Source: Octopus sinensis
Lineage: Eukaryota
Direction: 5' to 3'
Length of the DNA: 42,617 nucleotides
Assembly (NCBI RefSeq): GCF_006345805.1
Contig: NW_021835070.1
Location: 1 to 42,617 of the forward strand
Position numbers and translations under genes: made by a program. Of the stretch, positions 6,101 through 36,361 are shown in pieces. Position 1 is the first letter of the stretch. Every line of letters starts with the position of its first letter. A model generated the notes under the pieces. The model saw only the letters and a program-made list of their open reading frames with translations, made no database searches and was not told the DNA's origin.

Positions 6101-6270
6101 AGAGTGTGTTGTTGATGTGTGAGAGGGTGTGATAAGTTAGAGTCAACAGCAATGTCTCCTATATAGGTGTGAGGTCTGTCTTCTTCCTTGACATGGTATG
6201 TAATATCTATGGACAGTACAAGGGTGATCAGTAAATGTAGAAGACACAGTAGACCAATATATGCTGTCAT
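3124..6270 (-). CDS. Pcdh: Protocadherin gene 1 (6 EC + TM + cytoplasmic tail), three 1-bp deletions as assembled
   Basis: Coding exons 6270-3877, 3512-3368 and 3203-3124 with GT-AG sites in consistent phase. Cadherin motifs LDRE and DxNDN, EC1 Cys loop. Single-base losses relative to paralogs at about 5629, 4614 and 4421-4424. Confidence 0.9.
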
Positions 6271-6424
6271 GTCTGGAATTCTTCATCACATTTCAGCAGG
6301 AGAAATTGCTACAAAACATGAGAAATACATTTAAAGTTTATTTATAATTCAACAAATCTAATTATATTTACAATAATCACTGTGACACATCTATTTCTAT
6401 CTGGAAACGTGTTCCATTTGTCAA

Positions 6425-8015
6425 AATTGAACGTGGAGCAAAAAAAGGTACTTTTTACACAGTTTTTTTAAATATGTTTCCAAAAATATATTTTTCATTG
6501 CAAAATCCTTTATAAACAACTGTGTTAAAATCTGAAGTTCTTAAATATACATCTTCAGGCTCCACAGCCCACGTGAAATTTTGAATAATGAGCAAAAAAT
6601 CAATTTATAACACATTTGCATTCCTCATTTTATTTTTTATATTCATTGTTACAAATTGATTTTCTTTCGCGAAATTATTTAAAAACAAGAGTGTTAAAAT
6701 CTCAAGGTCTACAATTTATATCTTCAGGGTCCACCACACACTTGAAATTTCGAAATTATGTGAAAGAAATAGACTTTGTGACTTTGTTTCCTTTATTATT
6801 TTTAATACTAGGTCACTGAATATATGTGTTACATGAGGTCTAGATCACACACACATTAAAATAAAATTACATATAAACCAATTTTTGATTCTTGACACAT
6901 TTTGGTGATAAAAATATTTCCAATAAAAAATGTCAAATAAATCTTTTGTTGCATTTTTCTTAAACACATTACACTGTTTGAAATGATGGAACATTTTTTC
7001 TATTTCTCCCAGATTTAGTAATGCTTGATACTTTAGATAAAAGTTCAAGATTTTTAGTTTAACTGACTCAATTGTAACACAAGGGATGGATGCCTTTTGC
7101 CAAAGAAGTATTATCTTTTCTGCCTCAATCTCGAAAATTTGTTTAAATGAAGGATCTTTCTTAACTATATTCTTTTCTTTATCTTGTTCAAATAAAACAC
7201 ATTTTAGTATGTCCCACCTAGTTGGCAAAACTCACTTGCTAAGATCATATGGAGTACCAAATATTGGGCATTCAATATCATGGTGCGTTATTGGCTTACG
7301 AGTCATCACTAAATGTAAACAACACTAAATTTAACGTGATCGTTAATTTTAATACAATGGCCTAAAGTCAAGGTACAAAGCAGAAAACTTCACACGTACC
7401 ATGTACATCCACACACAATGACTGCTGCAGTGGCACTGGAGAGAAGTTCACACTCCCGTTCTCTATATAGTCAGTGCGAACCTCAAGATATTAATCAATT
7501 GTATTGAAACTTGGTATGCAACCTCTTAAGGATACTATATTTACTGTTTTGCATTTTGCTATGTAGAAATATATATACATTACGACTTATAATCGATGAA
7601 ATCCAAAATTTGACCAAAAATAGCGATTTTTAAATTTTTCAATTGTGTTGCGGAGCCTGAAAAGCATATTTAATCGCAATGTTCTTTATACACTTTTCTT
7701 TTTAACCTAATTCACAACAAAATATCTATTTCTTTATTACGCATAAGGGGCTAAACACAGAGGGGACAGACAAGGACAGACATAGGTATTAAGTCGATTA
7801 CATCAATCCCAGTGCATAACTGGTACTTAATTTATCGACCCCGAAAGGATGAAAGGCAAAGTCGACTTCGGCGGAATTTGAACTCACAACGTAACGACAG
7901 ACGAAATACGGCTACGCATTTCGCCCGGCATGCTAACGTTTCTGCCACCTCACTGCAACAAAATATCGATTCTTGGTTACCAATTTCGAAAGTTGCACTT
8001 TTCGCTCCACCCTAC
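6425..8015 (-). mobile_element. Probable decayed DNA transposon, superfamily not assigned
   Basis: ORF remnant 6845-7228 (PT.WD.L...LWQKASIP) resembles N-terminal regions I associate with invertebrate transposon-derived proteins. Imperfect inverted ends (gtggagcaaaaa at about 6432; ttttcgctccac at about 7999-8010) and internal repeats at about 6555 and 6725, inverted at about 7650. Confidence 0.4.
7728..7952 (-). mobile_element. tRNA-derived SINE, relatively intact copy nested in the transposon relic
   Basis: Same core as 994-1208 with CpGs retained: atcgaccccgaaaggatgaaaggcaaagtcgacttcggcggaatttgaactc. Confidence 0.75.
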
Positions 8016-8611
8016 TGAATAGTCTTCCGTGATCTAACAATACATAACGAGAGTTATCTCCCTCGAATAAACCTCACTCATTTATCTTAATTATTGTGTT
8101 GTTTATCTAGTCTCAATGTTTTACGTTGTCTCTCAGAAAATTCTGTTGTTGGATTAAACGTTAGCAATCATGTTTTAGGTTTAATGTTCATAATTTATCA
8201 ATAGATTAATGTATTTCTTCAAAAATATATCTATACTGAAATAATAAAACACTATATTAAAAATGAGTATCAAAGTGAGATATGACATGTCTGGAGCTCA
8301 ATTTAAATTGCTTGTCCCAACCCTCTGACCGATTACAGAAACTATTTGATAAAAATATCTACCGTCACAATCCTAACGATACAGTTACTTTTTCCTGTTC
8401 CGAGAACAATTTTGGAATGAATGTTTCTGCATTTCATTTTAATGTGGAAACAGGATGGTGGAGAGTAAAGAATCGAGGGAACTGTCTAATCCAATATGTA
8501 CATATGATGATAAAGATGAGGAGATAGAAAATATAAATTCTCAACCCAAATGTCACCATGTTTGAACAGTTATAAGGATTGCTACATGCTGGAATATAAC
8601 ATTTACTCTCT

Positions 8612-9160
8612 GTCATCATCATCGTCGTTTAACGTCTGCTTTCCATGCTAGCATGGGTTGGACGGTTTGACTGGGGTCTGGGAAGCCAGGAGACTGCACC
8701 AGGCTCCAGTCTGATCTGGCAGTGTTTCTACAGCTGGGTGCCCTTCCTAACGCCAACCACTCCAAGAGTGCAGTGGGTACTTTTTTACGAGTCACTGGCA
8801 CAGGGGTCACAGGGGGCTGACATTGACTGAGATTGGATGGTGCTTTTTACGTGACACCGGCATGGAAGCGAGTCAAGGTGACATATCATCTTTGTCGTTT
8901 AACGTTCGCTTTCCATGCTGGCATGGGTTGGACAGTTTGACTGAGGTCTGGAGAGCCAGAAGGCTGCACCAGGCTCCAATCTGATCTGGCAAAGTTTCTA
9001 CAACTGGATGCCCTTCCTAACGCCAACCACTCCGAGTGTAGTGGGTGATTTTACATGCCACTGGCATGAAAGCCAGTCAGGCAGTTCTGGCAATGACCAT
9101 GCTCAAAAGGTGTTTTTATGTGCTACCTGCACAGGAGCCAGTCTGGCGGCACTGGCAATG
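8612..9160 (-). mobile_element. Two tandem RTE-LINE 3'-end fragments
   Basis: gtcgtttaacgt...ctttccatgct.gcatgggttggac.gtttga at about 8625 and about 8895 matches the 3' end of the LINE at about 36362; (CAT)n tail. Confidence 0.7.
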
Positions 9161-9388
9161 AAATATACAGCTTAATTGAAGAAAGAGAACAAAAAACGTA
9201 GTGACAATTGTGATTGACTTAGAAACAAGAGAGATCTTTTCATCAAATGAAGAAATAATCTCACAATATTTACATGCTAAAGGAAATAAATGTATAATAT
9301 TTGTTTGCAGTAAGGGACTATTTTATATAAAGTAAAAGAATTATGAATATTTTTTTTACCACAATTATTTACATAATTACAACACGAG

Positions 9389-9469
9389 CTCCGTCCAAAC
9401 CGTGCTGTCCGTCCAACCCGTGCTAGCACGGAAAACGGACGTTAAACGATGATGATGATGATGATGATG
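9389..9469 (+). mobile_element. RTE-LINE extreme 3' end with (GAT)n tail
   Basis: ccaacccgtgctagcacggaaaacggacgttaaacgatgatgatg is the reverse complement of the terminus above. Confidence 0.7.
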
Positions 9470-10653
9470 AGATCAGAGAAATAACTGCAATGTGACAATG
9501 GCATCAGTGATAAATAATGGTGTGATGTACTGGATGCTGTATACAAAATAACTCTTTAAATAATTGAAAAGTGGCTCTGAACGAAAAAACACCCTAATGA
9601 CAATTTATGCTATTTCCAGAGATTTGTGAAAGCTGAAAAATAGGTGTCAGCTGAGCCTAAAACTGAATCAACAACACTAGACAGAGTTGACAATCATCAA
9701 AGTCCTTTCCTTTGGACAATAATATTTGCTTCATGTCAATGTGCCATTCTGTTACCAGTAGGTGAAAGGATATGTTTAGCAATGAGAATTACATTGATAG
9801 GAGAAGGCAGAAAAGCTCTGTGAATTATCCACTAAATCAATAAAAAACTACATAGTCTTTTCATTGCTTTACATACAAATATGTATTTTTCAGAAAATAT
9901 AACAAGACAATCTCTAGTTGACTTCTCTTACTCTCAACCTCTTTTGTAAAAGCAGCTTAGGATTAGAATATTTATTCTAATCCTAAGAAATGCATTTAAG
10001 AAGTACTAAAAATTATTAACAGAATATTATTGGTACGAAATCTCACACAGATGGATTAAAAGATGTTGATAAATTTGAAAGAAGATATTTAGTAGCCATA
10101 TTTGTCCAATATCTTTAAGGAATACTTCATATTTAATTTGAATGAAATATTTAATTTATAGAAAAAATAATTATGAGAATTTGGTACAAAGGTGTTAATG
10201 ACATACACAAAACAGTGTGTAAAATTTTGTGTAATAATTCACAATACATTTTATTCATAAGTAGATGGGGATTATTGAATATTTCGCTGGAAGTTAATAA
10301 TGAAAACAAAAAATTGATAAGTATCAGACAGAGATATTTAGAACTATTTATTAAGTGAAGTATAATGATGATAATTAAACCTCCATTTATATGTTTCGTA
10401 TTATACTGCTAAATATAATAAATTTCTGTGATGTTTTGGTATATTATAATAACAACTACATTAATGTGATGTATGATAGTTTGTTGAAAGACGATGATAT
10501 TATTTCTGATTCTCAAAATTCATCAATTGTTGTCAGAGTTAATAGATTTTAACAACAGTTGACAATATCGTCAGTTTCTAACTCACAATAAATACCTTAA
10601 ATAACAAATCTACATTAAATAATATTTATCAACATCTTAATTATAAAATATAA

Positions 10654-10840
10654 ACCTTTCTACCATAAGCACAAAGCCTGAAATTTTGGATGGGTAAGGG
10701 TTAATTGATTACATCAACCCCACTGCTTATCTGGTACTTATTTCATCCTGGTAGTCTTTGAAATCAGAAGGTAAAGACAAATAAAATGCCATAAAGCATT
10801 TTCTGTTGTCTGCCAATAATTCTGCAAACTTGCCACCTTG
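10654..10840 (-). mobile_element. Degenerate tRNA-derived SINE
   Basis: gcacaaagcctgaaattttgg...gattacatcaacccc...ctggtacttattt similarity to the family core. Confidence 0.55.
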
Positions 10841-11124
10841 AAAATAATATCAGTAATAACAATAAACATCCTTAGTTTATTATTTACAATATATATATGT
10901 ATATCTATAAAATGGATATTAATAATCTATCACAGTACATTGAAAATTTAATTAGTGAGTTATTACAACAAAACAGATATAAACTATACTGACATACATT
11001 AGTCAACACCCAGTCTTACTGGTTAGTGATGTCTTCTGACAGTGAAATAAAATATATATATATACAACTAGTTTAGACTATATTAGACCAATATTCTTTA
11101 TAGCAATATATATGTTTTTTAATA

Positions 11125-11815
11125 TTTCTTGTATAATGTTGTCTTGTGTGATTCTGACATTAAAAGGTGTAATCCAGATTGAAGTAATTGCATTACAATG
11201 TCTACTGCAGTTGTGTTGTTAATGGTGGAAGTGATGGCTAGATCTCTCGATCCTCCACTGTCCCAGTCCCTGTATATATACAACATGGCAGACATTTTAG
11301 ATATTATCCTTACCCTGTCTTTCATTAGAAACACAAATAATATAAATGTTATAATGAATATGAAAAGATAATAAGAGAGAGAGAGAGAGAGAGAGAGACT
11401 TACCTGCATTGTTTAATCCTTCACTGTAGTTGTGTGTGATGGATGATGTGTATCCTGCTGTAGTGTTCCACTCCAACTACTGCTGCTGCTGCTGTAGTGG
11501 TATTATAGTGGTACTGCTGCTGTTGTAGTAGTGTTCCTGTGTTACTGCTGCTGCTGCTGCTGTTCCTGTGTAACTGCTGATATAATAGTGTGACAGTTGC
11601 TGTATGTAGTGGGAGGTGAGATGTTAGCCAGATGCTGGTGTGTGCTAGTTACAACTCTATGTCCTCCACACACACACACACACACACAATTGTGTGTATG
11701 ATGAACAAAGAAAAAAGCTATCAGCCTCACTTTCAATATTGAAAGAAATATAGAAAATCTCTCTCATCCAATAGGAAATTATTGCAATGTTGTCTGTGTC
11801 ACACAAACACATCAA
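11125..11815 (-). promoter_or_regulatory. Promoter / leader cassette copy B (gene 1)
   Basis: CCAAT at 11768-11772; donor after 11404; matching acceptor ttttgtag before 6308. Confidence 0.7.
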
Positions 11816-12457: not shown

Positions 12458-15400
12458 CTATGTTGGCTGTAGATAGGTATCTTGTATTTGTTGTCCCTTT
12501 AGTATTGTGGATGCAACTGGATTGTCATTGGTATATTCTGTAAAATATCAAATATACAAACACAAATTACATTTCAATATAACAACTCCAATATATAAAG
12601 GTAGAAACATTGATCTTGTATTACACTAAGCATAACATTATATATTGTCCTACAGTAATAAAGGCAATTACATTTATATGTTATGTTTTGATAAAAGTTA
12701 CCTGGTTCTGCAGGTATCTCATCATATGGTTTAGTCTTGCCATTACTCTTGCTAGCTTCTCTGTCCTTTTGGGATGTTAAGGTGTCACTGTTGTAAGACA
12801 TGATGGAACTGGTACGACGTCCTTGACTATGGATTGAATCACATCTCTGTGGATTAGAAAACAAAGCAGGGTGAAACAATATAAAATAAAAGTAGCAATT
12901 GCATCTATATTCTGGAATGTTCCTAGAATGAAAGAACAGATTAAAGCTTTGAATTCAACAAAAATATAATTGAAGATTTTCTTAGTAAATTATAATAAAC
13001 ATTGAGGAGAGAATTAACAAATATATTAGTGCAAAGAAATATTTATAATTGCTTCTCCAAAAAGTAAATTTATGAAATGCCTCACCCGGGGCACTGATAT
13101 TATAGGCGCAGGAGTGGCTGTGTGGTAAGTAGCTTGCTAACCAACCACACGGTTGCGGGTTCAGTCCCACTGCGTGGCATCTTGGGCAAGTGTCTTCTGC
13201 TATAGCCCCGGGCTGACCAATGCCTTGTGAGTGGATTTGGTAGACGGAAACTGAAAGAAGCCTGTCGTATATATGTATATATATGTATATGTGTGTGTGT
13301 TTGTGTGTCTGTGTTTGTCCCCCTAGCATTGCTTGACAACCGATGCTGGTGTGTTTAGGTCCCCGTCACTTAGCGGTTCGGCAAAAAGAGACCGATAGAA
13401 TAAGTACTAAAAGGTGGTGCTCCAGCATGGCCGCAGTCAAATGACTGAAACAAGTAAAAGAGTAAAGAGTAAGAGTATCAATAATCTTTTATAAAGAAGA
13501 TATAAGGAATATGATATGACATGTAAATGAAATAAAATATATAAAACATGTTTTCAGAAATATTGATCACAAATATCTAACAAGAAAATTATTTTAAAAT
13601 ATATTTACCTGAGGCACAGGTGGAAGTCTCCTCTGTGTTGTTGAGAATTTCCACTCATCTGGTGTCTGTTCCATCTCCAGAAAAAACTGACTTTTAGATT
13701 TTATTGTCTGAAGATTTCGGTTAAATATCTCTTCTGCATTTCTCGTTATTGCAACAGGATTGTTAGTCTGATACAGTAATTGTCTCATCTCAGTCTGAGA
13801 GAGAAAGTTGGGATTCTCTGCTGTTGTGGGTGAGTTATTTGTGTGATTAATACATCTGAAAACACACAGTGTTATGGACACTACAATAGCCACAGATAGT
13901 ATTACAGCTGCTGCTACAATGATAATTACCCAAGTCATATTCAGGTCGTGACCAGACTGGAATGGCACAGCAGTCAACATTGGAGATGTATCATTACTAA
14001 CAACAGTGTTAGTATGATAGCAGTTGTTGCTGATTGAACTGGAGTACCACCGTCTTTCACTATAAACTGCAGCTCATATGTTCCTGCATCATTTTGGTAA
14101 ACTGTGCGAGAGAAAGATAACACACCAGTGTGTGAGTTCACTGTAAACAGGTTTTTATCATTGGATCTCAGTATTCCATATGTGAGGAAAGCATTGTTTC
14201 CAGTGTCTTTGTCAGATGCTCTCAGAATTGTGATGTCCTTCTTACTGTGTGGATGGTAGTGGACATCGAGATTGTAAGGGTCATTATTAGGAAACGTAAA
14301 ATACGGAGCATTATCATTTTTATCTAGAATCTCAATAACAATATTGGCAGTGTCATTGAGAGAAGGTGTTCCATTATCTTTCACTAAAACCTTGAACTTA
14401 TAGATGTCTTTCATTTCTCGATCTATTGGTTGTGATGTAGAAATGAATCCATATTTTGTCAGTTGGAAAGGAATGTTATCATTGTTGTTATCATTGATGA
14501 TAGAATATGTAAGTTGGCCTCCATCTCCAAGATCAGGGTCAGTAGCATTGATGAAGCCAATAGGGAAGTCAACTTTCTGGTTTTCATAGGTGAGGAATTG
14601 GAATGCCTCTTTGGTAAAATGTGGTTCTACATCATTGACATCAGTTACTTTGACAGAGAAATATTTTTTACTTTCTAGTTGAGGTGACCCCATGTCATGA
14701 CACACAATAGATACTTTATAGTGGTCCCTTATTTCTCTGTCAAGATGACCCTTAACAATCATTTTATATTCTTTAGAATCTATTTTGGCAAGTTTAAACT
14801 TATCATGTTTTAAATCACAGATAACCTCACCATTAGGTCCATTATCGGTGTCAGTGACCATAACATAAGCTATAAAACTACCAATTTTACTTGCTTCTGA
14901 AACTGCTGCTGAGCTCTCTGATAAAGGAGATACAAAATCTATATTTATCAATGGAGCATTATTCTGGTTATTAATAATGTGAATCTGGACTTTGGTTACA
15001 GAACTTAAATGTGGATTTCCTTCATCCTGTGCTTCAATAAATAATTTATATGATTGCTTTTTACTAAATTGAAAGCTGTCATGTAAAAACAGATCTCCAG
15101 TCTTCTTATTTAATACAAAATATTTCTGGATATTTCGAGAGGTTTTGTGGTTGAAATGGTAAGAAATCTTTCCATTGTCTCCAGAATCTTTATCTGTGGC
15201 CTTTAAAGTAAAAATTGGCAAATGTCTTTGATGTGAATTACTTATAGAGATGTTGTAAAGTTTCTGTGAAAATACAGGTACATTATCATTGACATCTGTC
15301 ACAGATATGTGTACCTTGAGTATAGCTGTTTTGGGAGGGTTTCCTCCATCTTTAGCTTCCAGAGTCAACATATATGAATCTTTGAGTTCCCTGTCTAATT

Positions 15401-16007
15401 TGTCTCCTAAAACTAGAGCTGGTATGAAAACACCATCATATCGCTTTTCAACTGAGAGAGAAAATGGTTCTCTTTTACTTTTCTTAATCATATATGTTAT
15501 TTGTGAATTCTGTATTGAAATATCTTGATCAATGGCATTTAAAAGTGAGATTTTAGTACCTTGAAGGTGACTCTCAAGAAATTCAATTTGAACTTCATTC
15601 TTTGGGAATTCTGGTGAGTGGTCATTGATGTCTTCTATTAATATTTTTATCCTTAGAATCTTCATAAAAGTTTCTTCTTTCCTCACTGCTACTTTGACAA
15701 TTTTGGAACATTCCTTGTTGTATGTACACAGAGACTCAGCATCCAGTGTTTGAGTAGTGTATAGTTTTCCTGAGTTGGTGACATTAAATAAGTGAGAACC
15801 ACTCTCGACTGTCCTTTGTAGTTGTGTAAATGTAATGAGAGTGTGTTGTTGATGTGTGAGAGGGTGTGATAAGTTGGAGTCAACAGCAATGTCTCCTATA
15901 TAGGTGTGAGGTCTGCCTTCTTCCTTGACATAGTATGTAATATCTATGGACAGTACAAGGGTGATCAGTAAATGTAGAAGACACAGTAGACCAATATATG
16001 CTGTCAT
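12458..16007 (-). CDS. Pcdh: Protocadherin gene 2, one 1-bp deletion just before the TM segment as assembled
   Basis: Exons 16007-13609, 12846-12702 and 12537-12458. The 677-aa ORF shifts frame at 14002-14003 (caaca versus caaaca in the paralogs). Confidence 0.92.
13105..13476 (+). mobile_element. Near full-length tRNA-derived SINE in the intron after the large exon of gene 2
   Basis: A-box-like gtggctgtgtgg, B-box-like ggttcagtcc, core-like ttgggcaagtgtctt, internal (TA)/(TG) tract and taaaagag-type tail; absent from the paralogous introns. Confidence 0.8.
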
Positions 16008-16439
16008 GTCTGGAATTCTTCATCACATTTGAGCAAGAGAAATTGCTATAAAGACAACAAAGATATTTAAATGAAATTAAATTTAAAAAACAATAATTTT
16101 TCTAAATGTTATTGCTATTTCTTAATAAAGTCCGGTAGACACAACTGAATAATTTAAAATTAGCTTCTGTGATACAGGTTGGAAGCATTAGAAAGTATAA
16201 TATTGGTTTATGGAAATCAATTGGTTCATGCTGAAAACATTGGTTCATGCTGATCAAAATACGAACTAAACAAAAGGTTAATAATATTCCTTTTATGCCA
16301 GGAATACATCTCTTTATAGAGAAGCACCATGTTGATAGTGACAAAGAACAAGATCAAATGTGTAATGCAACTATACTTAAGAGAAGTACTTCATCATCAC
16401 CAACACCATAGTCGTCATTGTTGGTGGCGGCAGTGGACT

Positions 16440-18167: not shown

Positions 18168-18211
<44 letters not shown>

Positions 18212-18414: not shown

Positions 18415-18927
18415 TATGTGATTCTGAGATTAAAAGATGTAATCCAGTTCAAAGTAATTGTATTACTGCAGTTATTGTTGTTAATGGTGGCAGTGATGGC
18501 TAGATCTCTCGATCCTCCACTGTCCCAGTCCCTGTATATATACAACATGGCAGACATTTTAGATATTATCCTTACCCTGTCTTTCATTAGAAACACAAAT
18601 AATATAAATGTTATAATGAATATGAAAAGATAATAAAGAGAAGAAAGGGAGAGAGAGAGACTTACCTGCATTGTTTAATCCTTCACTGTAGTTGTGTGTG
18701 ATGGATGATGTGTATCCTGCTGTAGTGTTCCACTCCAACTGCTGCTACTGCTGCTGTAGTGGTATTATAGTGGTACTGCTGCTGTTGTAGTAGTGTTCCT
18801 GTGTTACTGCTGCTGCTGCTGCTGTTCCTGTGTAACTGCTGATATAATAGTGTGACAGTTGCTGTATGTAGTGGGAGGTGAGATGTTAGCCAGATGCTGG
18901 TGTGTGCTAGTTACAACTCTATGTCCT

Positions 18928-18960
<33 letters not shown>

Positions 18961-19086
18961 TGTGTGTATGATGAACAAAGAAAAAAGCTATCAGCCTCAC
19001 TTTCAATATTGAAAGAAATATAGAAAATCTCTCTCATCCAATAGGAAATTACTGCAATGTGGTCTGTGTCACACAAACACATCAAA
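18415..19086 (-). promoter_or_regulatory. Promoter / leader cassette copy C (gene 2)
   Basis: CCAAT at 19038-19042; donor after 18666; acceptor ctttatag before 16045. Confidence 0.7.
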
Positions 19087-19727: not shown

Positions 19728-22700
19728 CTATGTTGGCTGTAGATAGGTATCTTGTATTTGTTGTCCCTTTAGTATTGTGGCTGCCACTGGATTGTCATTG
19801 GTATATTCTGCAAAATATCAAATATACAAACACAAATTACATTTCAATATAACAACTCCAATATATAAAGATAGAAACATTGATCTTGTATTACACTAAG
19901 CATAACATTATATATTGTCCTACAGTAATAAAGGCAATTACATTTATATGTTATGTTTTGATAAAAGTTACCTGGTTCTGCAGGTATCTCATCATATGGT
20001 TTAGTCTTGCCATTACTCTTGCTAGCTTCTCTGTCCTTTTGGGATGTTAAGGTGTCACTGTTGTAAGACATAATGGAACTGGTGCGACGTTCTTGACTAT
20101 GGATTGAGTCACATCTCTGTTGATTAGAAAACAGAGTGAAACATAATGTTAAAAAGAGAAAAACATCTACATTTGCATTCTAGTATATTCCCTGTGTTAT
20201 AGAAAAAAGGAACATTTTATTTTTCAAAATAAAAAATATTATAATTAAATATTTTCTTATTTAATTAAAATGCATTAGAGTCAAAAATAAATCATAACAA
20301 ATGTATAGGTTAGATATTAATGCACAAATTTTAAATATATCTATTTGGTTAAGTATAAAATGAAGAAAAAATCATTGAATCTTTCACAAAATAAATGCAG
20401 TATATTTTTGTAATAAATCACTTAAATGTACAAAATACACGAAATAGAATATAATATGTAACAAATACAAGGTTCGGCTGAACACTTCGTAGGCTCAACA
20501 AGATCCTCACATAGAATGTGACCAAACAAGGTTTATTTTGCAACATAATCACAGAAAAAGGGATCTTGCATTAATACAGAGTTAGATCACTCCTAATAAA
20601 ACAGTCTTTATATTAAGAGTATTGTATTTCTATAATAGGCATTGTGACCGCTTTGCTATCACTAAATAAAGAATAATTAATTCAGAATGTCAAAATAAAC
20701 TATGACATTTGATTATTAAAAACAATACATGTACATTAGAATCTAAAGTTGATATTTTATAGAAATATTTGAACATACATCACTAATGGAAAGAATACTC
20801 TTGTATTTAAAATCATAAGGATATCAAAAACAAGATAATATTTACCTGAGGCACAGGTGGAAGTCTCCTTTGTGTTGTTGAGAATTTCCACTCATCTGGT
20901 GTCTGTTCCATCTCCAGAAAAAACTGACTTTTAGATTTTATTGTCTGAAGATTTCGGTTAAATATCTCTTCTGCATTTCTCGTTATTGCAACAGGATTGT
21001 TAGTCTGATACAGTAATTGTCTCATCTCAGTCTGAGAGAGAAAGTTGGGATTCTCTGCTGTTGTGGGTGAGTTATTCGTGTGATTAATACATCTGAAAAC
21101 ACACAGTGTTATGGACACTACAATAGCCACAGATAGTATTACAGCTGCTGCTACAATGATAATTACCCAAGTCATATTCAGGTCGTGACCAGACTGGAAT
21201 GGCACAGCAGTCAACATTGGAGATGTATCATTACTAACAAACAGTGTTAGTATGATAGCAGTTGTTGCTGATTGAACTGGAGTACCACCGTCTTTCACTA
21301 TAAACTGCAGCTCATATGTTCCTGCATCATTTTGGTAAACTGTGCGAGAGAAAGATAACACACCAGTGTGTGAGTTCACTGTAAACAGGTTTTTATCATT
21401 GGATCTCAGTATTCCATATGTGAGGAAAGCATTGTTTCCAGTGTCTTTGTCAGATGCTCTCAGAATTGTGATGTCCTTCTTACTGTGTGGATGGTAGTGG
21501 ACATCGAGATTGTAAGGGTCATTATTAGGAAACGTAAAATACGGAGCATTATCATTTTTATCTAGAATCTCAATAACAATATTGGCAGTGTCATTGAGAG
21601 AAGGTGTTCCATTATCTTTCACTAAAACGTTGAACTTATAGATATCTTTCATTTCTCGATCTATTGATTGTGATGTAGAAATGAATCCATATTTGGTCAG
21701 TTGGAAAGGAATGTTATCATTGTTGTTATCATTGATGATAGAATATGTAAGTTGGCCTCCATCTCCAAGATCAGGGTCTGTAGCATTGATGAAGCCAATA
21801 GGGAAGTCAACTTTCTGGTTTTCGTAGGTGAGGAATTGGAATGTCTCTTTGGTAAAATGTGGTTCTACATCATTGACATCAGTTACTTTGACAGAGAAAT
21901 ATTTTTTACTTTCTAGTTGAGGTGACCCCATGTCATGACACACAATAGATACTTTATAGTGGTCCCTTATTTCTCTGTCAAGATGGCCCTTAACAATCAT
22001 TTTATATTCTTTAGAATCTATTTTGGCAAGTTTAAATTTATCATGTTTTAAATCACAGATAACCTCACCATTAGGTCCACTATCAGTGTCAGTGACCATA
22101 ACATAAGCTATAAAACTACCAATTTTACTTGCTTCAGAAACTGCTGCTGAACTCTCTGTTAAAGGAGATACAAAATCTATATTTATCAATGGAGCAGTAT
22201 TCTGGTTATTAATAATGTGAATCTGGACTTTGGTTAAAGAACTTAAGGGTGGATTTCCTCCATCTCGTGCTTCAATAAATAATTTATAAGACTGCATTTT
22301 AGTAAACTGAAAATTGTCATGTAAAAACAAATCTCCAGTGTTCTTATCTAAAACAAAATATTTCTGGATATTTCGAGATGTTTTATGGTTGAAATGATAA
22401 GAAATCTTTCCATTGTCTCCAGAATCTTGATCTGAAGCTTTTAAAGTAAGAATTGGTAAATGTCTTTGATGTGAATTACTTATAGAGATGTTGTAGATTT
22501 CCTGTGGAAATACAGGTGTATTATCATTAACATCTGTTACAGATATGTGTACTTTGAGTGAAGCTGTTTTTGGTGGGTTCCCTCCATCTTTAGCTTCTAG
22601 TATCAACATATAATAGTCATTGAGTTCCCTGTCTAATCTATCTTCTAGAATTAGCGCAGGTATGAAAATACCCTTCTGTTTTGTGACAGAGAGAGAAAAT

Positions 22701-23242
22701 GGTTCGCTTTTACTTTTTTTAATTATATATGTAATTTGAGAATTTTTGATTGAAATATCTTTATCAATTGCATTCAGAAGAGGGATTTTGCTTCCTTTAC
22801 TCTCTCTTTCTGAAAAATGAATCTTAACTTCATTTTGTGGAAATTCTGGAGAATGGTCATTGATGTCTTCTATTAATATTTTTATTTTGAGAATTTTCAT
22901 AAATGCTTCTTCTTTCCTCACTGCTACTTTAACTATTCTGGAACATTCCCTGTTGTATGTACACAGAGACTCAGCATCCAGTGTTTGAGTAGTGTATAGT
23001 TTTCCTGAGTTGGTGACATTAAATAAGTGAGAACCACTCTCGACTGTCCTTTGTAGTTGTGTAAATGTAATGAGAGTGTGTTGTTGATGTGTGAGAGGGT
23101 GTGATAAGTTAGAGTCAACAGCAATGTCTCCTATATAGGTGTGAAGTCTGTCTTCTTCATTGACATGGTATATAATATCTATGGACAGTACAAGGGTGAT
23201 CAGTAAATGTAGAAGACACAGTAGACCAATATATGCTGTCAT
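19728..23242 (-). CDS. Pcdh: Protocadherin gene 3, intact, 873 aa predicted
   Basis: Exons 23242-20846 (2397 nt), 20116-19972 (145 nt) and 19807-19728 (80 nt). Signal peptide, six EC repeats, TM WVIIIVAAAVILSVAIVVSITLCVF, C-terminus ...DTYLQPT*. Confidence 0.95.
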
Positions 23243-24940
23243 GTCTGGGATTCTTCATCACATTTCAGCAGGAGAAATTGCTATAAAAGACAACAAATAT
23301 TTAAACATTAAGTACAATAAAATAAGTTCATTTGAAGTTATAATAACCATTATATAAATGATTATTGATTGTATGTCTTTTACATGTGCTCTAAATAATT
23401 CAAAATGTTTCTTTTAATCTAACAAGCTAAGTGACAATATATAGATGATGCCGCTTCTTTGGAAAAAGGCAACAACCTTTCTGTGTTTAGAATTGCATTT
23501 AGAATGTTTTGGCATGACAAGTTTCATAATTTACTATTGAGAGAGTACTTAGAAAGGGACAACGTCTTGATATTGATTTCTAATTATGGCACAAGGCTAG
23601 CAGTTTTGGGGGAGGGGTTAAGTTGCTTACATCGATCCCAGTGCTCACCTGGTACTTATTTTATTAACCCCAAAAGGATGAAAGGCAAAGTCAAACCTGG
23701 TGGAATTTGAACTCAGAATGTAAAGGCAGACGAAATACTGCTGAGCAGTTTGCTTGGTAAGATAATAATTCTAGCAGCATATTGCCTCACAGTAGATTGA
23801 TACTGAAATATCACATCTTTGTTGACTCCATGAGTATCTGATGAGGATATTTCATTGAGATATTTTGTAACAAATGTTTAATCTTGTTCAGGCTCCATGT
23901 CTTCCTTAGAAACGATTTCAAAACAGACACGGAGCCTGAACAGCCTTTCAGCTGGTCAGTTCCTACCAGACCATCCAACCCATACTAGCATGAAAAATGG
24001 ACATCAAATGATGATGACAATGGTGATTAGATGTAATCAATTTACAGTTAGATATTTAGAATTTAATCCACACTGTAGTTATATGTTGGAATATTAACTG
24101 ATAATGCTGTTAATGATTCTATTTTTGGTTGAAAGAATAAATGTAATGCAAAACATATCTTTATATTGTAGAAGTGTATGTAATACCTCTCTGTAGAAAT
24201 ATGAAGCCAAGTTCCATTCCTCAATACACACACCAATATAAACACCTTCAGGCACACATATATATTACAAGCAAGCAAAACAGTCAATATTCTTCTGGAT
24301 AGGTAACAACACTGGGTGGACAAAGTAAACATATTGGAGGTAGACAAAAGGATAGATAAAGAAACTGAGGCAGTCAGAGAAGATACCAGAACAATTACAA
24401 TTAGACTTGTCATAGACAACATGACTGCAGCCATTATCTCTTCACTTAAACTGCAAACAAGAGGAACAGATGAACAACAGGATTGTTTCAAAAAACTCTC
24501 TTATGGATCATCATGATAACAAAATAAAAATAAGAAAACAGTGGAAATTTTACCGGTGAGTGTGTTACATTATAAGGCACAAAAAGAAAATGATTCTCCC
24601 CAAAATGAGTTTATATTTCACACAAAATATTTTGAATAAAAAAGCTAGACAAGATTATATTTATCATCCATTGTAATGATAATGGTGACGAGGAACATTC
24701 TTTGCTTATTATGCACAAATGAATATATAATGTATATATATATATATATATATAGGGATATTACTAATGTTAGAATTCATAAATTATTAACACTGTCTTA
24801 TTGGCTATAATCAATGTTTTTTGATAGTTAAATAAATGCACACACACACATACACGCACACACATATATCAGTTTGGACTATATTAAACAATTCTATATA
24901 AGATATATAGTTTAATATCCTTTGTATAATGTTGTCTTAT
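22826..24940. repeat. Near-identical duplicated or converted segment, copy 1
   Basis: Matches 29009-31120 at an offset of about 6183, including intron sequence and embedded SINE and RTE remnants. Confidence 0.9.
23585..23788 (-). mobile_element. tRNA-derived SINE
   Basis: Family core; duplicated at 29768-29971. Confidence 0.7.
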
Positions 24941-25590
24941 GTGATTTTGATATTAAAAGGTGTAATCCAGATTGAAGTAATTGTATTACAATGACTACTG
25001 CAGCTGTTGTTAATGGTGGAAGTGATGGCTAGATCTCTCGATCCTCCACTGTCCCAGTCCCTGTATATATACAACATGGCAGACATTTTAGATATTATCC
25101 TTACCCTGTCTTTCACTAGAAACACAAATAATATAAATGTTATAATGAATATGAAAAGATAATAAAGAGAAAGAGAGAGAGAGAGAGACTTACCTGCATT
25201 GTTTAATCCTTCACTGTAGTTGTGTGTGATGGATGATGTGTATCCTGCTGTAGTGTTCCACTCCAACTGCTGCTGCTGCTGTAGTGGTATTATAGTGGTA
25301 CTGCTGCTGTTGTAGTAGTGTTCCTGTGTTACTGCTGCTGCTGTTCCTGTGTAACTGCTGATATAATAGTGTGACAGTTGCTGTATGTAGTGGGAGGTGA
25401 GATGTTAGCCAGATGCTGGTGTGTGCTAGTTACAACCCTATGTCCTCCACACACACACACACAATTGTGTGTATGATGAACAAAGAAAAAAGCTATCAGC
25501 CTCACTTTCAATATTGAAAGAAATATAGAAAATCTCTCTCATCCAATAGGAAATTACTGCAATGTTGTCTGTGTCACACAAACACATCAA
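24930..25590 (-). promoter_or_regulatory. Promoter / leader cassette copy D (gene 3)
   Basis: CCAAT at 25543-25547; donor after 25194; acceptor ttttatag before 23280. Confidence 0.7.
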
Positions 25591-26489
25591 ACAAGAGAAG
25601 TCATATTAATGACCCAAAGCAGCATCACTTTTTCTTTTTAATAAAAACTCTACATTACATATTTAATGTTAGGAAATAAGACTTATATATATTTATAATA
25701 ATATTTCTGGATATTTGATGGATTATTATTAACTTGACTATAAGAATACATATTCGAGATTTCTATTAGAAACAAATTGATTTCATGGTAAGTCATCAAA
25801 CATAATTATTTAAGAAGTTTACATGATTAGTCAAACTAGAAACAAAGTAAATTAGGAGAAGCAAAACTATTTCCATTTTAAAAAGACACATGATTTTCCA
25901 ATATGTTTTATGTCTTATTTCATAAAATATATAACATTTAAATCTTAACACTTCAAAAAACTTTATAAATATGTCGGTAAGTTTAGTATATTAACAATAT
26001 AGGTAACAACACTTTATTGAATGTTGTGGGAATCAACACTTATCCATTAATGCTGGTATTGATCAATGAAATTTAAAATACATTGAACATAAAGTGGTGT
26101 GAACAAAAGACGAAATGCAAATAAAATAAAACAATGGTAAAAGTGAGTATGATAATGTTAAATGGTAGAATTCATATCAAACTAAAATTCTATAACTAAA
26201 CTTCTGAGAATGATTCAGATTAAGTTGTGTATGTTTAGTGAAATGTATATACTAAGACTGAGAGGAAAACAACTATTTTGTAATAATGAACGTTGGTAAT
26301 GCAGAATAAGTTGTTTGTGGTATTTAACGTATCAGTGCTGCAAATTAGGGGTCATAATAGATGCCACTGTAAGGCCCTTATGTGTGATGTGTGAAAGAAA
26401 CATAGAGTTGATATTTTTATAGGAATATAAAGTATTGTATAAGATTTGGTGTGTGAGAGAATCATTTAACAATAGTCATAGAACATCTA

Positions 26490-29425: not shown

Positions 29426-31120
29426 GTCTGGAATTCTTCATCACATTTCAGCAGGAGAAATTGCTATAAAAGACAACAAATATTTAAACATTAAGTACAA
29501 TAAAATAAGTTCATTCGAAGTTATAATAAACATTATATAACTGATTATTGTTTGTATGTCTTTTTGATGTGCTCTAAATAATTCAAAATGTTTCTTTTAA
29601 TCTAACAAGCTAACTTACAATATATAGATGATGCCGCTTCCTTGGAATAAGGCAGCAACCTTTCTGTGTTTAGAATTGCATTTAGAATATTTTGGCATGA
29701 CAAGTTTCATAATTTACTATTGAGAGAGTACTTAGAAAGGGACAACGTCTTGATATTGATTTCTAATTATGGCACAAGGCTAGCAGTTTTGGGGGAGGGG
29801 TTAAGTTGCTTACATCGATCCCAGTGCTCACCTGGTACTTATTTTATTAACCCCAAAAGGATGAAAGGCAAAGTCAAACCTGGTGGAATTTGAACTCAGA
29901 ATGTAAAGGCAGACGAAATACTGCTGAGCAGTTTGCTTGGTAAGATAATAATTCTAGCAGCATATTGCCTCACAGTAGATTGATACTGAAATATTACATC
30001 TTTGTTGACTCCATGAGTATCTGATGAGGATATTTCATTGAGATATTTTGTAACAAATGTTTAATCTTGTTCAGGCTCCATGTCTTCCTTAGAAACGATT
30101 TCAAAACAGACACGGAGCCTGAACAGCCTTTCAGCTGGTCAGTTCCTACCAGACCATCCAACCCATACTAGCATGAAAAATGGACATCAAATGATGATGA
30201 CAATGGTGATTAGATGTAATCAATTTACAGTTAGATATTTAGAATTTAATCCACACTGTAGTTATATGTTGGAATATTAACTGATAATGCTGTTAATGAT
30301 TCTATTTTTGGTTGAAAGAATAAATGTAATGCAAAACATATCTTTATATTGTAGAAGTGTATGTAATACCTCTCTGTAGAAATATGAAGCCAAGTTCCAT
30401 TCCTCAATACACACACCAATATAAACACCTTCAGGCACACATATATATTACAAGCAAGCAAAACAGTCAATATTCTTCTGGATAGGTAACAACACTGGGT
30501 GGACAAAGTAAACATATTGGAGGTAGACAAAAGGATAGATAAAGAAACTGAGGCAGTCAGAGAAGATACCAGAACAATTACAATTAGACTTGTCATAGAC
30601 AACATGACTGCAGCCATTATCTCTTCACTTAAACTGCAAACAAGAGGAACAGATGAACAACAGGATTGTTTCAATAAAACTCTCTTATGGATCATCATGA
30701 TAACAAAATAAAAATAAGAAAACAGTGGAAATTTTACCGGTGAGTGTGTTACATTATAAGGCACAAAAAGAAAATGATTCTCCCCAAAATGAGTTTATAT
30801 TTCACACAAAATATTTTGAATAAAAAAGCTAGACAAGATTATATTTATCATCCATTGTAATGATAATGGTGACGAGGAACATTCTTTGCTTATTATGCAC
30901 AAATGAATATATAATGTATATATATATATATATATAGGGATATTACTAATGTTAGAATTCATAAATTATTAACACTGTCTTATTGGCTATAATCAATGTT
31001 TTTTGATAGTTAAATAAATGCACACACACATACACGCACACACATATATCAGTTTGGACTATATTAAAAAATTCTATATAAGATATATAGTTTAATATCC
31101 TTTGTATAATGTTGTCTTAT
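29009..31120. repeat. Near-identical duplicated or converted segment, copy 2
   Basis: Matches 22826-24940. Confidence 0.9.
29768..29971 (-). mobile_element. tRNA-derived SINE (duplicated with the segment)
   Basis: Matches 23585-23788. Confidence 0.7.
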
Positions 31121-31783
31121 GTGACTCTGACATTAAAAGGTGTAATCCAGATTAAAGCAATTGTATTACAATGACTACTGCAAATTTTGTTGTTGCCAAT
31201 GGTGGAAGTGATGGCTAGATCTCTCGATCCTCCACTGTCCCAGTCCCTGTATATATACAACATGGCAGACATTTTAGATATTATCCTTACCCTGTCTTTC
31301 ATTAGAAACACAAATAATATAAATGTTATAATGAATATGAAAAGATAATAAAGAGAGAGAGAGAGAGAGAGAGAGACTTACCTGCATTGTTTAATCCTTC
31401 ACTGTAGTTGTGTGTGATGGATGATGTGTATCCTGCTGTAGTGTTCCACTCCAACTACTGCTGCTGCTGCTGTAGTGGTATTATAGTGGTACTGCTGCTG
31501 TTGTAGTAGTGTTCCTGTGTTACTGCTGCTGCTGCTGTTCCTGTGTAACTGCTGATATAATAGTGTGACAGTTGCTGTATGTAGTGGGAGGTGAGATGTT
31601 AGCCAGATGCTGGTGTGTGCTAGTTACAACTCTATGTCCTCCACACACACACACAATTGTGTGTATGATGAACAAAGAAAAAAGCTATCAGCCTCACTTT
31701 CAATATTGAAAGAAATATAGAAAATCTCTCTCATCCAATAGGAAATTACTGCAATGTTGTCTGTGTCACACAAACATATCAAA
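31110..31783 (-). promoter_or_regulatory. Promoter / leader cassette copy E (gene 4)
   Basis: CCAAT at 31735-31739; donor after 31382; acceptor before 29463. Confidence 0.7.
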
Positions 31784-32816
31784 TATGAGAAGTTGTGTTA
31801 AAATAAACAAGACTGATAATTTCCACAGAACATTATATATTTAGTTTTAATAATCAAACCATTTCATCTTTACATTCCTTTTAATTATTTTTGAAATAGA
31901 AATATCTTTTTATATTTAATGTTATAATTGGTAACTACAAAACTACAATCAGTCATAATATATATTTTTTTTAAACAGTTCTGTATATTTTACTTGTTAT
32001 CTATAAAGAAATGAATGTGACAAACCCATAGCTTTTGACATACAAAGTATAGAAGAATAAAGAGAAATATGTTAGAACATTGTGATTTTGAGGAAATGTA
32101 TTTAATATTTAACCATTATCACCTCAATATCTCACCTATGTAAAGCAAAAATCCTTTAGCAATATTTCTTATTCAAAATAGAATCATGGCTTATTAGTCA
32201 TATTAATGTAAAGGTGAGGAATAAAATTAATTCTTACTTTTATTAAAATATTAATGTTTCCCTCTCAAAACTAACTTACTAAATGTTACAATGTAGTATA
32301 ATGTAAAGCTATCTCAAATATTTTTGGTGATATTAGAAGAATCTATAGAATCGTATGGGCAAATTATATCATGAAAGGAACATTAAATAATGTGTAATTG
32401 TATTTTGCTGGTTAGCTCCAGGAGGTTTTTCTGTTATACAAATGAAAATTATAAATCTAAAAGGGAAAATTAACAATCAGAAGCTTAATTAATATAAGTG
32501 GAACTATAATAATTGTTTGTTTATGTAACAACATCTGACAATTCCTGACCAGGCTTTTTTATTTTTCATACTTTGTAGAGTAAAATGCAGTAACATTTAA
32601 TGTTATATGAAGCCATAACAAACGAGTGGTGTCAACTGTTTTAAATAAGCCAATGATGGTTATACAGGACAATATTTGTACTATTAGTGTTAATTAGGGC
32701 TCAATATCAATGACAATGAAAGCTTTATGAGTGGTAAATATCATATTAATGCTTTAAATCAATGTAAAATATTGGGTGTGTGAGAGAATCATTTAACAAT
32801 AGTCATGGAACATCTA

Positions 32817-35800
32817 CTATGTTGGCTGTAGATAGGTATCTTGTATTTGTTGTCCCTTTAGTATTGTGGCTGCCACTGGATTGTCATTGGTATATTCTGC
32901 AAAATATCAAATATACAAACACAAATTACATTTCAATATAACAACTCCAATGTATAAAGATAGAAACATAGATCTTATATTACACTAAGCATAACATTAT
33001 ATATTGTCCTACAGTAATAAAGGCAATTACATTTATATGTTATGTTTTGATAAAAGTTACCTGGTTCTGCAGGTATCTCATCATATGGTTTAGTCTTGCC
33101 ATTACTCTTGCTAGCTTCTCTGTCCTTTTGGGATGTTAAGGTGTCACTGTTGTAAGACATGATGGAACTGGTACGACGTCCTTGACTATGGATTGAATCA
33201 CATCTCTGGTGATTAGAAAACAGAGTGAAACATAATGTTAAATCAAAGAAACATTCGCATTTATATTCTAGAATGTTTCCAGTAAGACTCGAGGAAGGAA
33301 TGCTGTTAAAATGTGCAGAAATAATGTAATTTTAAAGATCTACTAAGTTAATAAAAAGAACTTGGAGAAGTGATAAACAAAACGGAAAACTCATTTAATG
33401 AAGTATGTGAAAATTTTAGATCTATTATATTTACATACTAAGCAAATTAAAATATTTTGGAGTAAACAAAACAAAGATACTACTTTAATGAAATATTTGG
33501 AAATTTTAAATTTAAGACATCTGCAAAATGTAAAACTATCAAAAAGGGCACTGAGAAAATATAAAGAACATAACATGTAAATAAAACTAGATATTTAAAA
33601 TATGTCTTCATGAATGTTATACAAAAATGCTATCAAACAATAGAATTGTTTAAAATAATATTTACCTGAGGCACAGGTGGAAGTCTCCTTTGTGTTGTTG
33701 AGAATTTCCACTCATCTGGTGTCTGTTCCATCTCCAGAAAAAACTGACTTTTAGATTTTATTGTCTGAAGATTTCGGTTAAATATCTCTTCTGCATTTCT
33801 CGTTATTGCAACAGGATTGTTAGTCTGATACAGTAATTGTCTCATCTCAGTCTGAGAGAGAAAGTTGGGATTCTCTGCTGTTGTGGGTGAGTTATTTGTG
33901 TGATTAATACATCTGAAAACACACAGTGTTATGGACACTACAATAGCCACAGATAGTATTACAGCTGCTGCTACAATGATAATTACCCAAGTCATATTCA
34001 GGTCGTGACCAGACTGGAATGGCACAGCAGTCAACATTGGAGATGTATCATTACTAACAAACAGTGTTAGTATGATAGCAGTTGTTGCTGATTGAACTGG
34101 AGTACCACCGTCTTTCACTATAAACTGCAGCTCATATGTTCCTGCATCATTTTGGTAAACTGTGCGAGAGAAAGAAAACACACCAGTGTGTGAGTTCACT
34201 GTAAACAGGTTTTTATCATTGGATCTCAGTATTCCATATGTGAGGAAAGCATTGTTTCCAGTGTCTTTGTCAGATGCTCTCAGAATTGTGATGTCCTTCT
34301 TACTGTGTGGATGGTAGTGGACATCGAGATTGTAAGGGTCATTATTAGGAAACGTAAAATACGGAGCATTATCATTTTTATCTAGAATCTCAATAACAAT
34401 ATTGGCAGTGTCATTGAGAGAAGGTGTTCCATTATCTTTCACTAAAACCTTGAACTTATAGATGTCTTTCATTTCTCGATCTATTGGTTGTGATGTAGAA
34501 ATAAATCCATATTTTGTCAGTTGGAAAGGAATGTTATCATTGTTGTTATCATTGATGATAGAATATGTAAGTTGGCCTCCATCTCCAAGATCAGGGTCTG
34601 TAGCATTGATGAAGCCAATAGGGAAGTCAACTTTCTGGTTTTCATAGGTGAGGAATTGGAATGTCTCTTTGGTAAAATGTGGTTCTACATCATTGACATC
34701 AGTTACTTTGACAGAGAAATATTTTTTACTTTCTAGTTGAGGTGACCCCATGTCATGACACACAATAGATACTTTATAGTGGTCCCTTATTTCTCTGTCA
34801 AGATGGCCCTTAATAATTATCTTATATTCTTTAGAATCTATTTTGGCAAGTTTAAATTTATCATGTTTTAAATCACAGATAACCTCACCATTAGGTCCAC
34901 TATCATTGTCAGTGACCATAACATAAGCTATAAAACTATCTACTTCACTGTCTTCTGAAACTGCAGTGGAACTCTCTGTTAAAGGAGACACAAAATCTAT
35001 ATTTATCAACGGAACATTGTTTTGGTTATTAATTACATAAATGTGAATTCTGGCTACCGACGTTAGAGGTGGATTCCCACCATCTCTTGCTTCTATAAAT
35101 AAAGACTGCATCTTACTAAAGTAAAAATTATCATGTAAAAATAAATCTCCAGTTTTCTTATCCAATACAAAATATTTCTGGATATTTTGAGATGTTTTAT
35201 GGTTGAAATGGTAAGAAATCTTTCCATTGTCTCCAGAATCTTGATCTGTGGCTTTTAAAGTAAGAATTGGTAAATGTCTTTGATGTGAATTATTTATAGA
35301 GATATTATAGAGTTTCTGTGAAAATACAGGTGTGTTATCATTAACATCTGTCACAGATATGCGTACCTTGAGTGTACCTGTTCTGGGAGGGTTCCCACCA
35401 TCTTTAGCCTCTAAGGTCAATATATACAAATCTTTTACTTCCCTGTCTAATTTGTCTTCTAAAGTCAGTTCAGGTGTAAAAACACCATCATTATCTTTTG
35501 CCATATACAAAGAAAATGGTTCTCTTTTATGATATTTTATGTTATATGAAATTTGGGAATTCATGATGGTAATATCTCTGTCTATAGCATATGGAATTTT
35601 TTTCTGATTTCCTTTCAGACTATCTTCTGCAAACTTGATACCTATTTCATCATCCGTAAATTCTGGAGAATAGTCATTGATGTCTTCTATTATTATTTTC
35701 ACCTTCAAAATCTTCATGAAAGTTTTTCCTTTCCTCACTGCTACTTTAACTATTCTGGAACATTCCTTGTTGTATGTACACAGAGACTCAGCATCCAGTG

Positions 35801-36062
35801 TTTGAGTAGTGTATAGTTTTCCTGAGTTGGTGACATTAAATAAGTGAGAACCACTCTCGACTGTCCTTTGTAGTTGTGTAAGTGTAATGAGAGCGCGTTG
35901 CTCATGTTTGAGAGGGTGTGATAAGTTGGAGTCAACAGCAATGTCTCCTATATAGGTGTGAGGTCTGTCTTCTTCCTTGACGTGGTAGGTGATGTCTACA
36001 GACATTACAACAGACTGTTTTATATATAGCAAACACACCAAGTAAAAAACGTTTTCATTCAT
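32817..36062 (-). CDS. Pcdh: Protocadherin gene 5, intact, 873 aa predicted, divergent signal peptide and EC2
   Basis: Exons 36062-33666, 33205-33061 and 32896-32817; acceptor atttgtag before 36100. Confidence 0.95.
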
Positions 36063-36361
36063 GATTGCAACTCTTCATTCTTCATTATTATTGAATATTT
36101 CTACAAATATAATAGAAATTATTTAATACCAGCTTAAAGAAAAAATTTGACATGAAAGTTCATCAAATATAAACCTTGGAGTACTATACAATAGAAATAT
36201 ATTTGAAAATTGTGAAAGAAAGTCATTAAAAGTAAGTTTTTATGTGTTCCTGTTAGTGTGAAGAAATAGTCCGGATTTACATTAGAGTTATCTCCCCTAG
36301 ACGTTGTAAACAATACTCATCTGAAGCGTTCTTTCAAAAATTTTATACATCATCCTGCTCA

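Follow-up and report, generated by a model that had tools for sequence, protein, structure and literature searches.

What does an extra start codon at the end of a leader exon do to the protein encoded behind it? The question is raised by a 42,617-nucleotide stretch of Octopus sinensis DNA (contig NW_021835070.1 of assembly GCF_006345805.1; contig C11541 of G000 in our numbering), hereafter called the window, which carries five protocadherin genes, all on the minus strand. The first exons of the arrayed octopus protocadherin genes are homologous to one another and in most cases have an AUG at their end. Splicing converts this AUG into a short upstream open reading frame (uORF), by which protocadherin output is likely lowered. 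Judging from the sequence, we favour an inherited short uORF that stems from the shared exon-1 AUG and likely dampens protocadherin translation, and we give this reading a probability of about 0.5.

Each gene begins with a leader exon, which an intron of 1.9-8.6 kb separates from a large coding exon; small 3' exons follow. The main ATGs of genes 1-5 are located at 6270, 16007, 23242, 29425 and 36062 (minus strand), and intron 1 of genes 1-4 measures 5095, 2620, 1913 and 1918 nt. All five genes possess an AG exactly 38 nt before the main ATG and an A at +4 (ATG-A). The exon-1 copies end in ATGCAG|GTAAGT, with their ATGs at 1828, 11409, 18671, 25199 and 31387 (minus strand). The spliced uORF comprises 15 codons, and its TGA overlaps the main ATG, so the short frame is closed at the main start. 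The initial annotation had described this arrangement, and it was recovered in every detail: the leader ending in ATG-CAG|GT was seen in all five exon-1 copies, the 38-nt acceptor-to-ATG spacing with the ATGA overlap in 5 of 5 large exons, and the spliced peptides, including two synonymous changes in gene 2, an F>S change in gene 3 and the peptide of gene 5, were the same. The features on which the argument rests are the following.

25194..25604, minus strand: 5' leader exon (exon 1) of gene 3, with its donor after 25194; the 5' end is provisional, and an RNA-like contig runs 96 letters further
25194..25209, minus strand: conserved exon-1 end GGATT..ACA-ATG-CAG of gene 3, upstream AUG at 25199-25197
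23243..23280, minus strand: leader portion (38 nt) of gene 3 exon 2, uORF codons 3-15; three RNA-like runs stop at 23280-23282
23239..23242, minus strand: ATGA of gene 3, the main start overlapped by the uORF stop
23157..23258, minus strand: 33-codon out-of-frame open reading frame of gene 3, running into the coding sequence from an internal ATG 16 nt before the main start
20846..23242, minus strand: large-exon coding part of protocadherin gene 3, an open reading frame; joints with CT..AC ends in three runs
20117-20845 and 19808-19971, minus strand: downstream introns of gene 3
11404..11764, minus strand: exon-1 copy for gene 1 with its ATG-free stretch, upstream AUG at 11409, donor after 11404
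6267..6308, minus strand: 38-mer and ATGA overlap of gene 1
18666..19034, minus strand: exon-1 copy for gene 2, upstream AUG at 18671
16004..16045, minus strand: 38-mer and ATGA overlap of gene 2
31382..31731, minus strand: exon-1 copy for gene 4, upstream AUG at 31387, downstream of the gene 5 stop codon
29422..29463, minus strand: 38-mer and ATGA overlap of gene 4; Pfam cadherin domains in the open reading frame
36059..36100, minus strand: divergent, gap-free 38-mer and ATGA overlap of gene 5, whose exon 1 lies outside the window at G000:C14:60501606
1823..2174, minus strand: exon-1 copy for the next gene, upstream AUG at 1828; the large exon of that gene lies outside the window

The ATG-free leader before the upstream AUG, put at about 340 nt in the initial annotation, measured 340-363 nt. 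Composition would predict about 5 ATGs in such a stretch, an expectation that is overstated because the stretch holds tandem CAG/CAC repeats. Further ATGs lie 343-405 nt upstream of this AUG, inside the reach of one RNA-like contig (to 25604); hence the upstream AUG may not be the first AUG in every transcript. The internal out-of-frame ATG that opens the 33-codon overlapping frame is retained in 22/22 array paralogs. Within ATGTGATG, the first ATG is kept in just 12 of 22 array paralogs and the second in all 22. For gene 5, exon 1 (L167) was located 8630 nt upstream on the C14 copy and likewise ends in ATG-CAG|GT.

The exon 1-exon 2 junction is very probably in use. Four runs were taken as RNA by guess, and the junction evidence from them consists of contig ends and depths; in that comparison 25155-25199, including the donor, was masked as a (TC)n repeat. 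Three of the four runs show both downstream introns of gene 3 with canonical ends. Two leader contigs stop exactly 6 letters beyond 25200, that is, at the predicted donor, and a 513-nt contig with a depth of 9.27 covers 25200-25604 plus 96 further letters, with equal depth over the 38-mer. On the acceptor side, three runs from three studies stop at 23280-23282, and run X19 continues into the intron. The annotated protein P0153 (a chimeric model) uses the predicted donor and acceptor, and its translation crosses from exon 1 to the 38-mer in precisely the register expected. Moreover, the O. vulgaris protein P0007 begins with an in-frame exon-1/exon-2 fusion that had been predicted beforehand for two array-B genes. 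Thus junctions such as 25194>23280, which the initial annotation had asked to be confirmed, are supported indirectly by RNA-like contig ends, depths and the model P0153.

We also considered whether exon 1 might encode part of the gene upstream and rejected this, because gene 5 is completed by three downstream exons and a stop of its own. The public models P0153, P0152, P0133 and P0144 (938-4439 aa) are apparently fused neighbouring array genes; P0153 extends into the leader exon of the next gene, a join that suggests a chimeric model. The sequence AGG|GTAAGG at 25104 and 11313 (minus strand) resembles another donor. It lies in a block conserved among copies, some 90 nt inside intron 1; the depth in its bin was 0, 0, 0 and 1.26 in the four RNA-like runs, values that weigh neither for nor against its use.

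How far does the arrangement extend beyond the window? Upstream DNA was taken from 144 gene records, acceptors were called by a simple score, and exon 1 was assigned by homology in 105 of them; the 39 records with exon 1 unassigned (32 dispersed, 7 arrayed) stand outside the 105, and unplaced-contig copies were left out as duplicates. An AUG 6 nt before the donor was found in 78/105 paralogs, and one further AUG at -5. By sub-array the -6 AUG occurs in 26/27 genes of A (the window's array), 9/12 of A2, 28/29 of B, 7/7 of B2, 8/8 of D, 0/21 of C and 0/1 elsewhere, and it has a purine at -3 in 77 of the 78. The exon-1 end is shared across five sub-arrays. A 21-letter pattern of this end gave 46 genome hits, all in protocadherin arrays or duplicate contigs, versus 1 control, and a looser pattern gave 122 hits versus 47 controls, with 68 of the 100 listed falling within C14 58.5-60.7 Mb; matches to ACAAWGGAT..GTAAGT were dominated by a repeat. 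The inference drawn in the initial annotation, that ribosomes must leak past the upstream AUG or reinitiate after it, is upheld, and with 78 of 105 paralogs this AUG reaches further than the annotation could show.

The fate of the last exon-1 AUG varies. In the 105 paralogs it leads to an ATGA overlap in 24, a stop before the main start in 71, some other overlap in 5, an in-frame fusion in 4, and one has no AUG. In two of these 5 the uORF runs over no more than an additional in-frame ATG, and its stop lies 14 nt ahead of the homologous start. In five A2 paralogs exon 1 ends in ATG-TAG, a start-stop. Further upstream AUGs were noticed in exon 1 of L073 (-69 and -20; array C), L051 (-106; B) and L071 (-18; D), and some further exon-1 AUGs of arrays C, B and D have A at -3 and G at +4. 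Exon-1 copies without a matched protocadherin start also occur, at L182:459 (C14:60416459) and L180:463 (C14:60074163); for these orphan or alternative first exons no start was matched ahead of the following exon 1 (L182) or over the 19 kb that come after (L180, L181).

Hints that the upstream AUG is read are best in array B, where the exon-2 leader is just 71.5% identical between copies, near the intron level of 62%. The uORF TAA is nevertheless kept in 11/11 full-length copies, and of 54 triplets none is better conserved, the overlapping TTA sharing first place; because this stop persists in diverged copies, it suggests that the AUG is read there. The uORF frame is open in 12/15 copies versus 3 and 6 in the other frames, as against 3/7 for each frame in the control array C. 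TAA/TGA stop swaps were observed in L142 and array B2. In array A, the uORF frame showed a marginal excess of synonymous changes, 6 synonymous to 6 non-synonymous versus 3.1 synonymous expected (P=0.039, one-sided), though this value comes from a set of 12 frame tests, and 0.043 was also obtained for an unrelated frame in array D. The synonymous tests gave 0.039, 0.084 and 1.0 for A, B and D, with a combined value of 0.076; codon tests were run on gap-free subsets (A 23, B 15, D 8, C 7). From the array-B patterns we infer that initiation may occur at the upstream AUG and that repression may follow. In addition, three stop-spanning deletions in array B (8, 11 and 14 nt; determined by eye) put the AUG in frame with the main open reading frame, with a chance of 0.037 for events chosen after seeing the data; larger deletions in L079 and L121, neither of which yields an overlapping uORF, were excluded from this count.

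Such a choice after the fact weighs against the dampening uORF, and so do several other observations. Among 24 exon-1 lineage representatives, a choice biased to divergent copies, the ATG is kept in 13, versus 23 for GAT, 22 for GGA, 19 for AAT and 17 for CAA. All 21 array-C genes are without the -6 AUG, though other exon-1 AUGs are present. In three A2 genes the uORF overlaps the coding sequence by 71-143 nt. Indels inside uORFs had no significant frame bias (4:2 versus 5:11, P=0.18). The presence of some exon-1 AUG in 104/105 paralogs is a weak count because an ATG in 70 AT-rich bases is expected by chance, and the acceptors outside arrays A and B are heuristic predictions.

If the upstream AUG, with its purine at -3, is used, it would capture part of the scanning ribosomes, and protocadherin would likely be made by ribosomes that scan past it. 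For arrays with the stop 9-67 nt upstream, ordinary reinitiation may also be possible. In array A, leaky scanning would dominate, because the overlap would leave no room to reload initiator tRNA. In extracts from PMC5972666, a 1-nt uORF overlap likely already precludes typical reinitiation, and substantially overlapping uORFs are bypassed via leaky scanning, as also in a part of PMC10275272. A leaking ribosome in array A would also have to pass the internal ATG that opens the 33-codon overlapping frame, and termination at the overlap might expose the mRNA to nonsense-mediated decay. A layout of the ATF4/GCN4 type, with delayed reinitiation, was not found: the overlapping frame starts inside the first uORF, with no spacer.

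The initial annotation went further and saw a conserved translational gate in the 38-nt spacing, the frame and the ATGA overlap. The family survey gave it no support. Throughout the family an acceptor is predicted a short way ahead of the start, but its distance from the ATG ranges from 0 to 90 nt: it is 38 in 24/27 array-A genes, 33 in D, 0-60 in B and 40-60 in C, and the frames are spread 13/10/10 among 33 dispersed genes. Distance and frame are thus largely random across the wider family, the very outcome named beforehand as refuting the gate. The ATGA overlap is present in 24/27 genes of the window's array and in 0/78 elsewhere. Because distance and frame vary in this way and the overlap is confined to array A, the overlap has a single origin; the uORF came to end in this way in one lineage, and tandem duplication together with gene conversion spread the overlap. 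Identity between array-A copies is 93% for the 38-mer, 98% for four-fold sites in the next 240 nt and 99% for the exon-1 end; hence duplication and conversion explain the constancy of the 38-mer, which is less conserved than neighbouring four-fold sites. The overlap has been lost in L032, L106 and L112; in L032, whose open frame spans 817 aa and whose exon 1 is the same, the spacer measures 36 nt and the uORF stops 15 nt too soon. Genes 1-4 are mutually 92-96% identical, and the five window genes are non-independent cases.

Other traces of homogenisation were seen as well. At L091-L115 and at array B loci it is mosaic, with exon-1 ends 99% identical within arrays and the 3' end of intron 1 at 62-65%. 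Over the first 240 coding bases of array A, identity reaches 98.1% at four-fold sites versus 96.5% at second codon positions. Gene 5 (36014-36100) is a chimera in which a divergent 38-mer and signal peptide sit between an array-type exon 1 and the body, the latter being 92% identical to gene 4. Its 38-mer is a gap-free homologue with 23/38 identical positions and would stay open by chance with P=0.39.

The AUG may also be no more than tolerated, as a side effect of an element conserved at the exon-1 end for its role in DNA or in splicing, a tentative alternative that we rate well short of even. ACAATG resembles what we take to be a Sox/HMG site and GGATTA a K50-homeodomain site. Since conservation is higher in the flanking GGATT and CAAT than in the ATG itself, such an element is a live rival; the upstream half-site alternates between ACAAAG and ACAATG, the antisense CATTGTC, unable to form an AUG, is common to arrays B, B2, C and part of A2, and L121, L179 and L034 lose the G alone with CAAT retained. 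Plain inheritance also explains much, because the whole of exon 1 can be aligned across arrays. An element alone leaves the conserved stop, the stop swaps and the in-frame deletions of array B unexplained, however, and L037 and L058 break the CAAT core yet keep an ATG with a purine at -3; that the rest of the array-A leader is without ATGs is a further point for translational use. The two are not mutually exclusive, and the element is plausible alone or combined with a uORF that is read. More specific to array A is coupled termination-reinitiation, in which the uORF would carry ribosomes over one or two internal AUGs onto the main AUG. The best argument for it is the internal overlapping ATG kept in 22/22 paralogs, because a leaking ribosome must pass this ATG too. 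The overlap in 24/27 array genes, a sole 3-nt deletion that keeps the frame, the overlap retained by gene 5 and the synonymous excess are also in its favour, as are four Argonauta proteins and one O. vulgaris protein that start Met-Thr, preserving ATG-A. Met-Thr may, however, be kept at the protein level, the synonymous excess is one of 12 frame tests with its counterpart in an unrelated frame, and the overlap has one origin, no occurrence outside the array and three losses, in a 38-mer less conserved than four-fold sites. Moreover, no stable fold was predicted for the leader, and the stretch of gene 3 that was scanned (307 nt from exon 1 and 45 nt from exon 2) holds no UGGGA motif 1. We hence regard coupled restart as improbable.

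Least probable, and very doubtful in our view, is a functional 15-residue peptide or the relic of an N-terminal extension encoded by exon 1. It would suit uORFs of arrays A and B that are mostly 15 codons long, an AUG fused in frame in four B genes (one matched by the O. vulgaris model), an Argonauta protein that starts MK with a similar extension, and an array D uORF that shares the main frame, a single stop closing it. Against this, the peptides are unalike across arrays and range from 1 to 56 codons, with start-stop, 2-5-codon and 10-codon forms common; in the synonymous tests P rose from 0.039 in A to 1.0 in D; and most of the 120 listed homologous proteins begin at the signal peptide. The inherited, dampening uORF remains the reading that we prefer.

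Removal of the upstream AUG by adenosine-to-inosine editing, speculated on in the initial annotation as a switch, found no support, the upstream AUG itself being masked in the contig comparison. No stable duplex was predicted around it: with 150 nt of intron included, the pre-mRNA fold scored -99.4 versus -101.6 +/- 4.1 for shuffles, and the A of the upstream AUG is predicted to be unpaired (P=0.95). An A>G at 23263 in the contigs was considered as editing and rejected; since a second change accompanies it and paralogs carry the two in their genomic DNA, it is a genomic paralog variant.

Comparison with known systems places the octopus uORF as a real and apparently undescribed case of a familiar type. 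It is like the canonical short AUG uORFs of animal 5' leaders in a start codon that persists better than peptide, length or frame, in its purine at -3 and in its shortness, and in such uORFs generally the start is conserved and the peptide is free (PMC7889888); it differs in spanning a splice junction, in being inherited over about 80 tandem paralogs and in its varied endings within a single genome. The long isoform of human SLAMF1 has a 29-codon uORF whose stop overlaps the main start as UGAUG, by a mechanism left unresolved (PMC5972666), and so is likewise a cellular mRNA with a short uORF and a stop over the main AUG; octopus has AUGA instead, in one sub-array only, and no UGGGA-like motif was found in the gene 3 leader. 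AUGA stop/start geometry, present in 5/5 window genes, is shared with caliciviruses and influenza B, which depend on a termination upstream ribosome-binding site (PMC5972666, PMC10275272), whereas the octopus upstream frame has 15 codons and is not long, motif 1 is missing and the overlap is not conserved in the family. The ATG-TAG of the five A2 paralogs and an ATG-TGA in 12/22 38-mers are like start-stop elements (bioRxiv 10.1101/2021.07.26.453809). The main uORF of the window, in contrast to these, has an elongation phase.

Vertebrate clustered protocadherins have per-gene promoter elements, each tandem paralog standing behind shared conserved regulatory sequence. The octopus tandem paralogs are likewise each preceded by a shared conserved sequence, but they have a separate leader exon, and the motifs are different and lie in or near exon 1; octopus protocadherin genes are full duplicates (PMC9068888). 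Exon 1 (C14 59.1-60.7 Mb, e.g. L044, L051 and L073; window 25194-25420) is alignable across arrays and contains the shared blocks YTCCCAC, TGACTCA, CCATTGTCAC, CAGCAGTTACAC, ACAAWGGAT and ACAATG, a candidate per-gene control element. These blocks resemble CSL, AP-1, Sox and K50-homeodomain sites. In its most ambitious form, which we think unlikely as a whole, exon 1 would be a control module shared across arrays and a counterpart of the vertebrate per-gene promoter element; its terminal AUG would set the translation of each paralog, tuned differently per sub-array (start-stop, spaced stop, in-frame fusion, AUGA coupling), and in the window's array the uORF would bring ribosomes past inhibitory AUGs to the main start.

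The more interesting result is the exon-1 module that recurs across the family. No description of cephalopod protocadherin leaders, uORFs or first-exon elements was found in the literature searched, a scope that did not extend to supplements, Albertin 2015 or Wang and Ragsdale 2017; the passages seen of PMC9068888, PMC6339937 and PMC13218726 treat protocadherin number, clustering and gene conversion rather than leaders or promoters. As uORFs are common as such, the surprise is moderate. How cephalopods choose and dose 150-300 protocadherins can now be approached through concrete, testable sequences, namely the exon-1 module and the uORF in about 80 paralogs, and start-stop, spaced stop, overlap, fusion and loss form a natural allelic series behind near-identical first exons.

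The protocadherin assignment holds, in that homologues of the window genes carry the name protocadherin; in genes 4 and 5 a PF08266 (N-terminal Cadherin_2) domain and 5 PF00028 stretches lie in one large exon. The protein search gave at least 150 matches (150 of 294 candidates scored), with C14 holding nearly all of them. The window looks like an unplaced duplicate of C14 at about 60.5 Mb; being near-identical to contig C11250 and to C14 at about 60.51-60.55 Mb, it is probably an unplaced haplotype copy. The large exon is broken by single-base deletions at 4424, 4614 and 5625 in gene 1 and at 14003 in gene 2. For gene 1 these are likely assembly errors, because the open frame of the same gene is 563 aa on C11250 versus 238 aa here. 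Reverse-transcriptase-like frames, broken and with many stops, occupy 36760-38500 on the minus strand in the first intron of gene 5, and look like the remnant of a retrotransposon without long terminal repeats (non-LTR). A very abundant short interspersed repeat was found at 982-1224, 23566-23778, 29749-29961 and 42424-42583, two of the copies lying in first introns.

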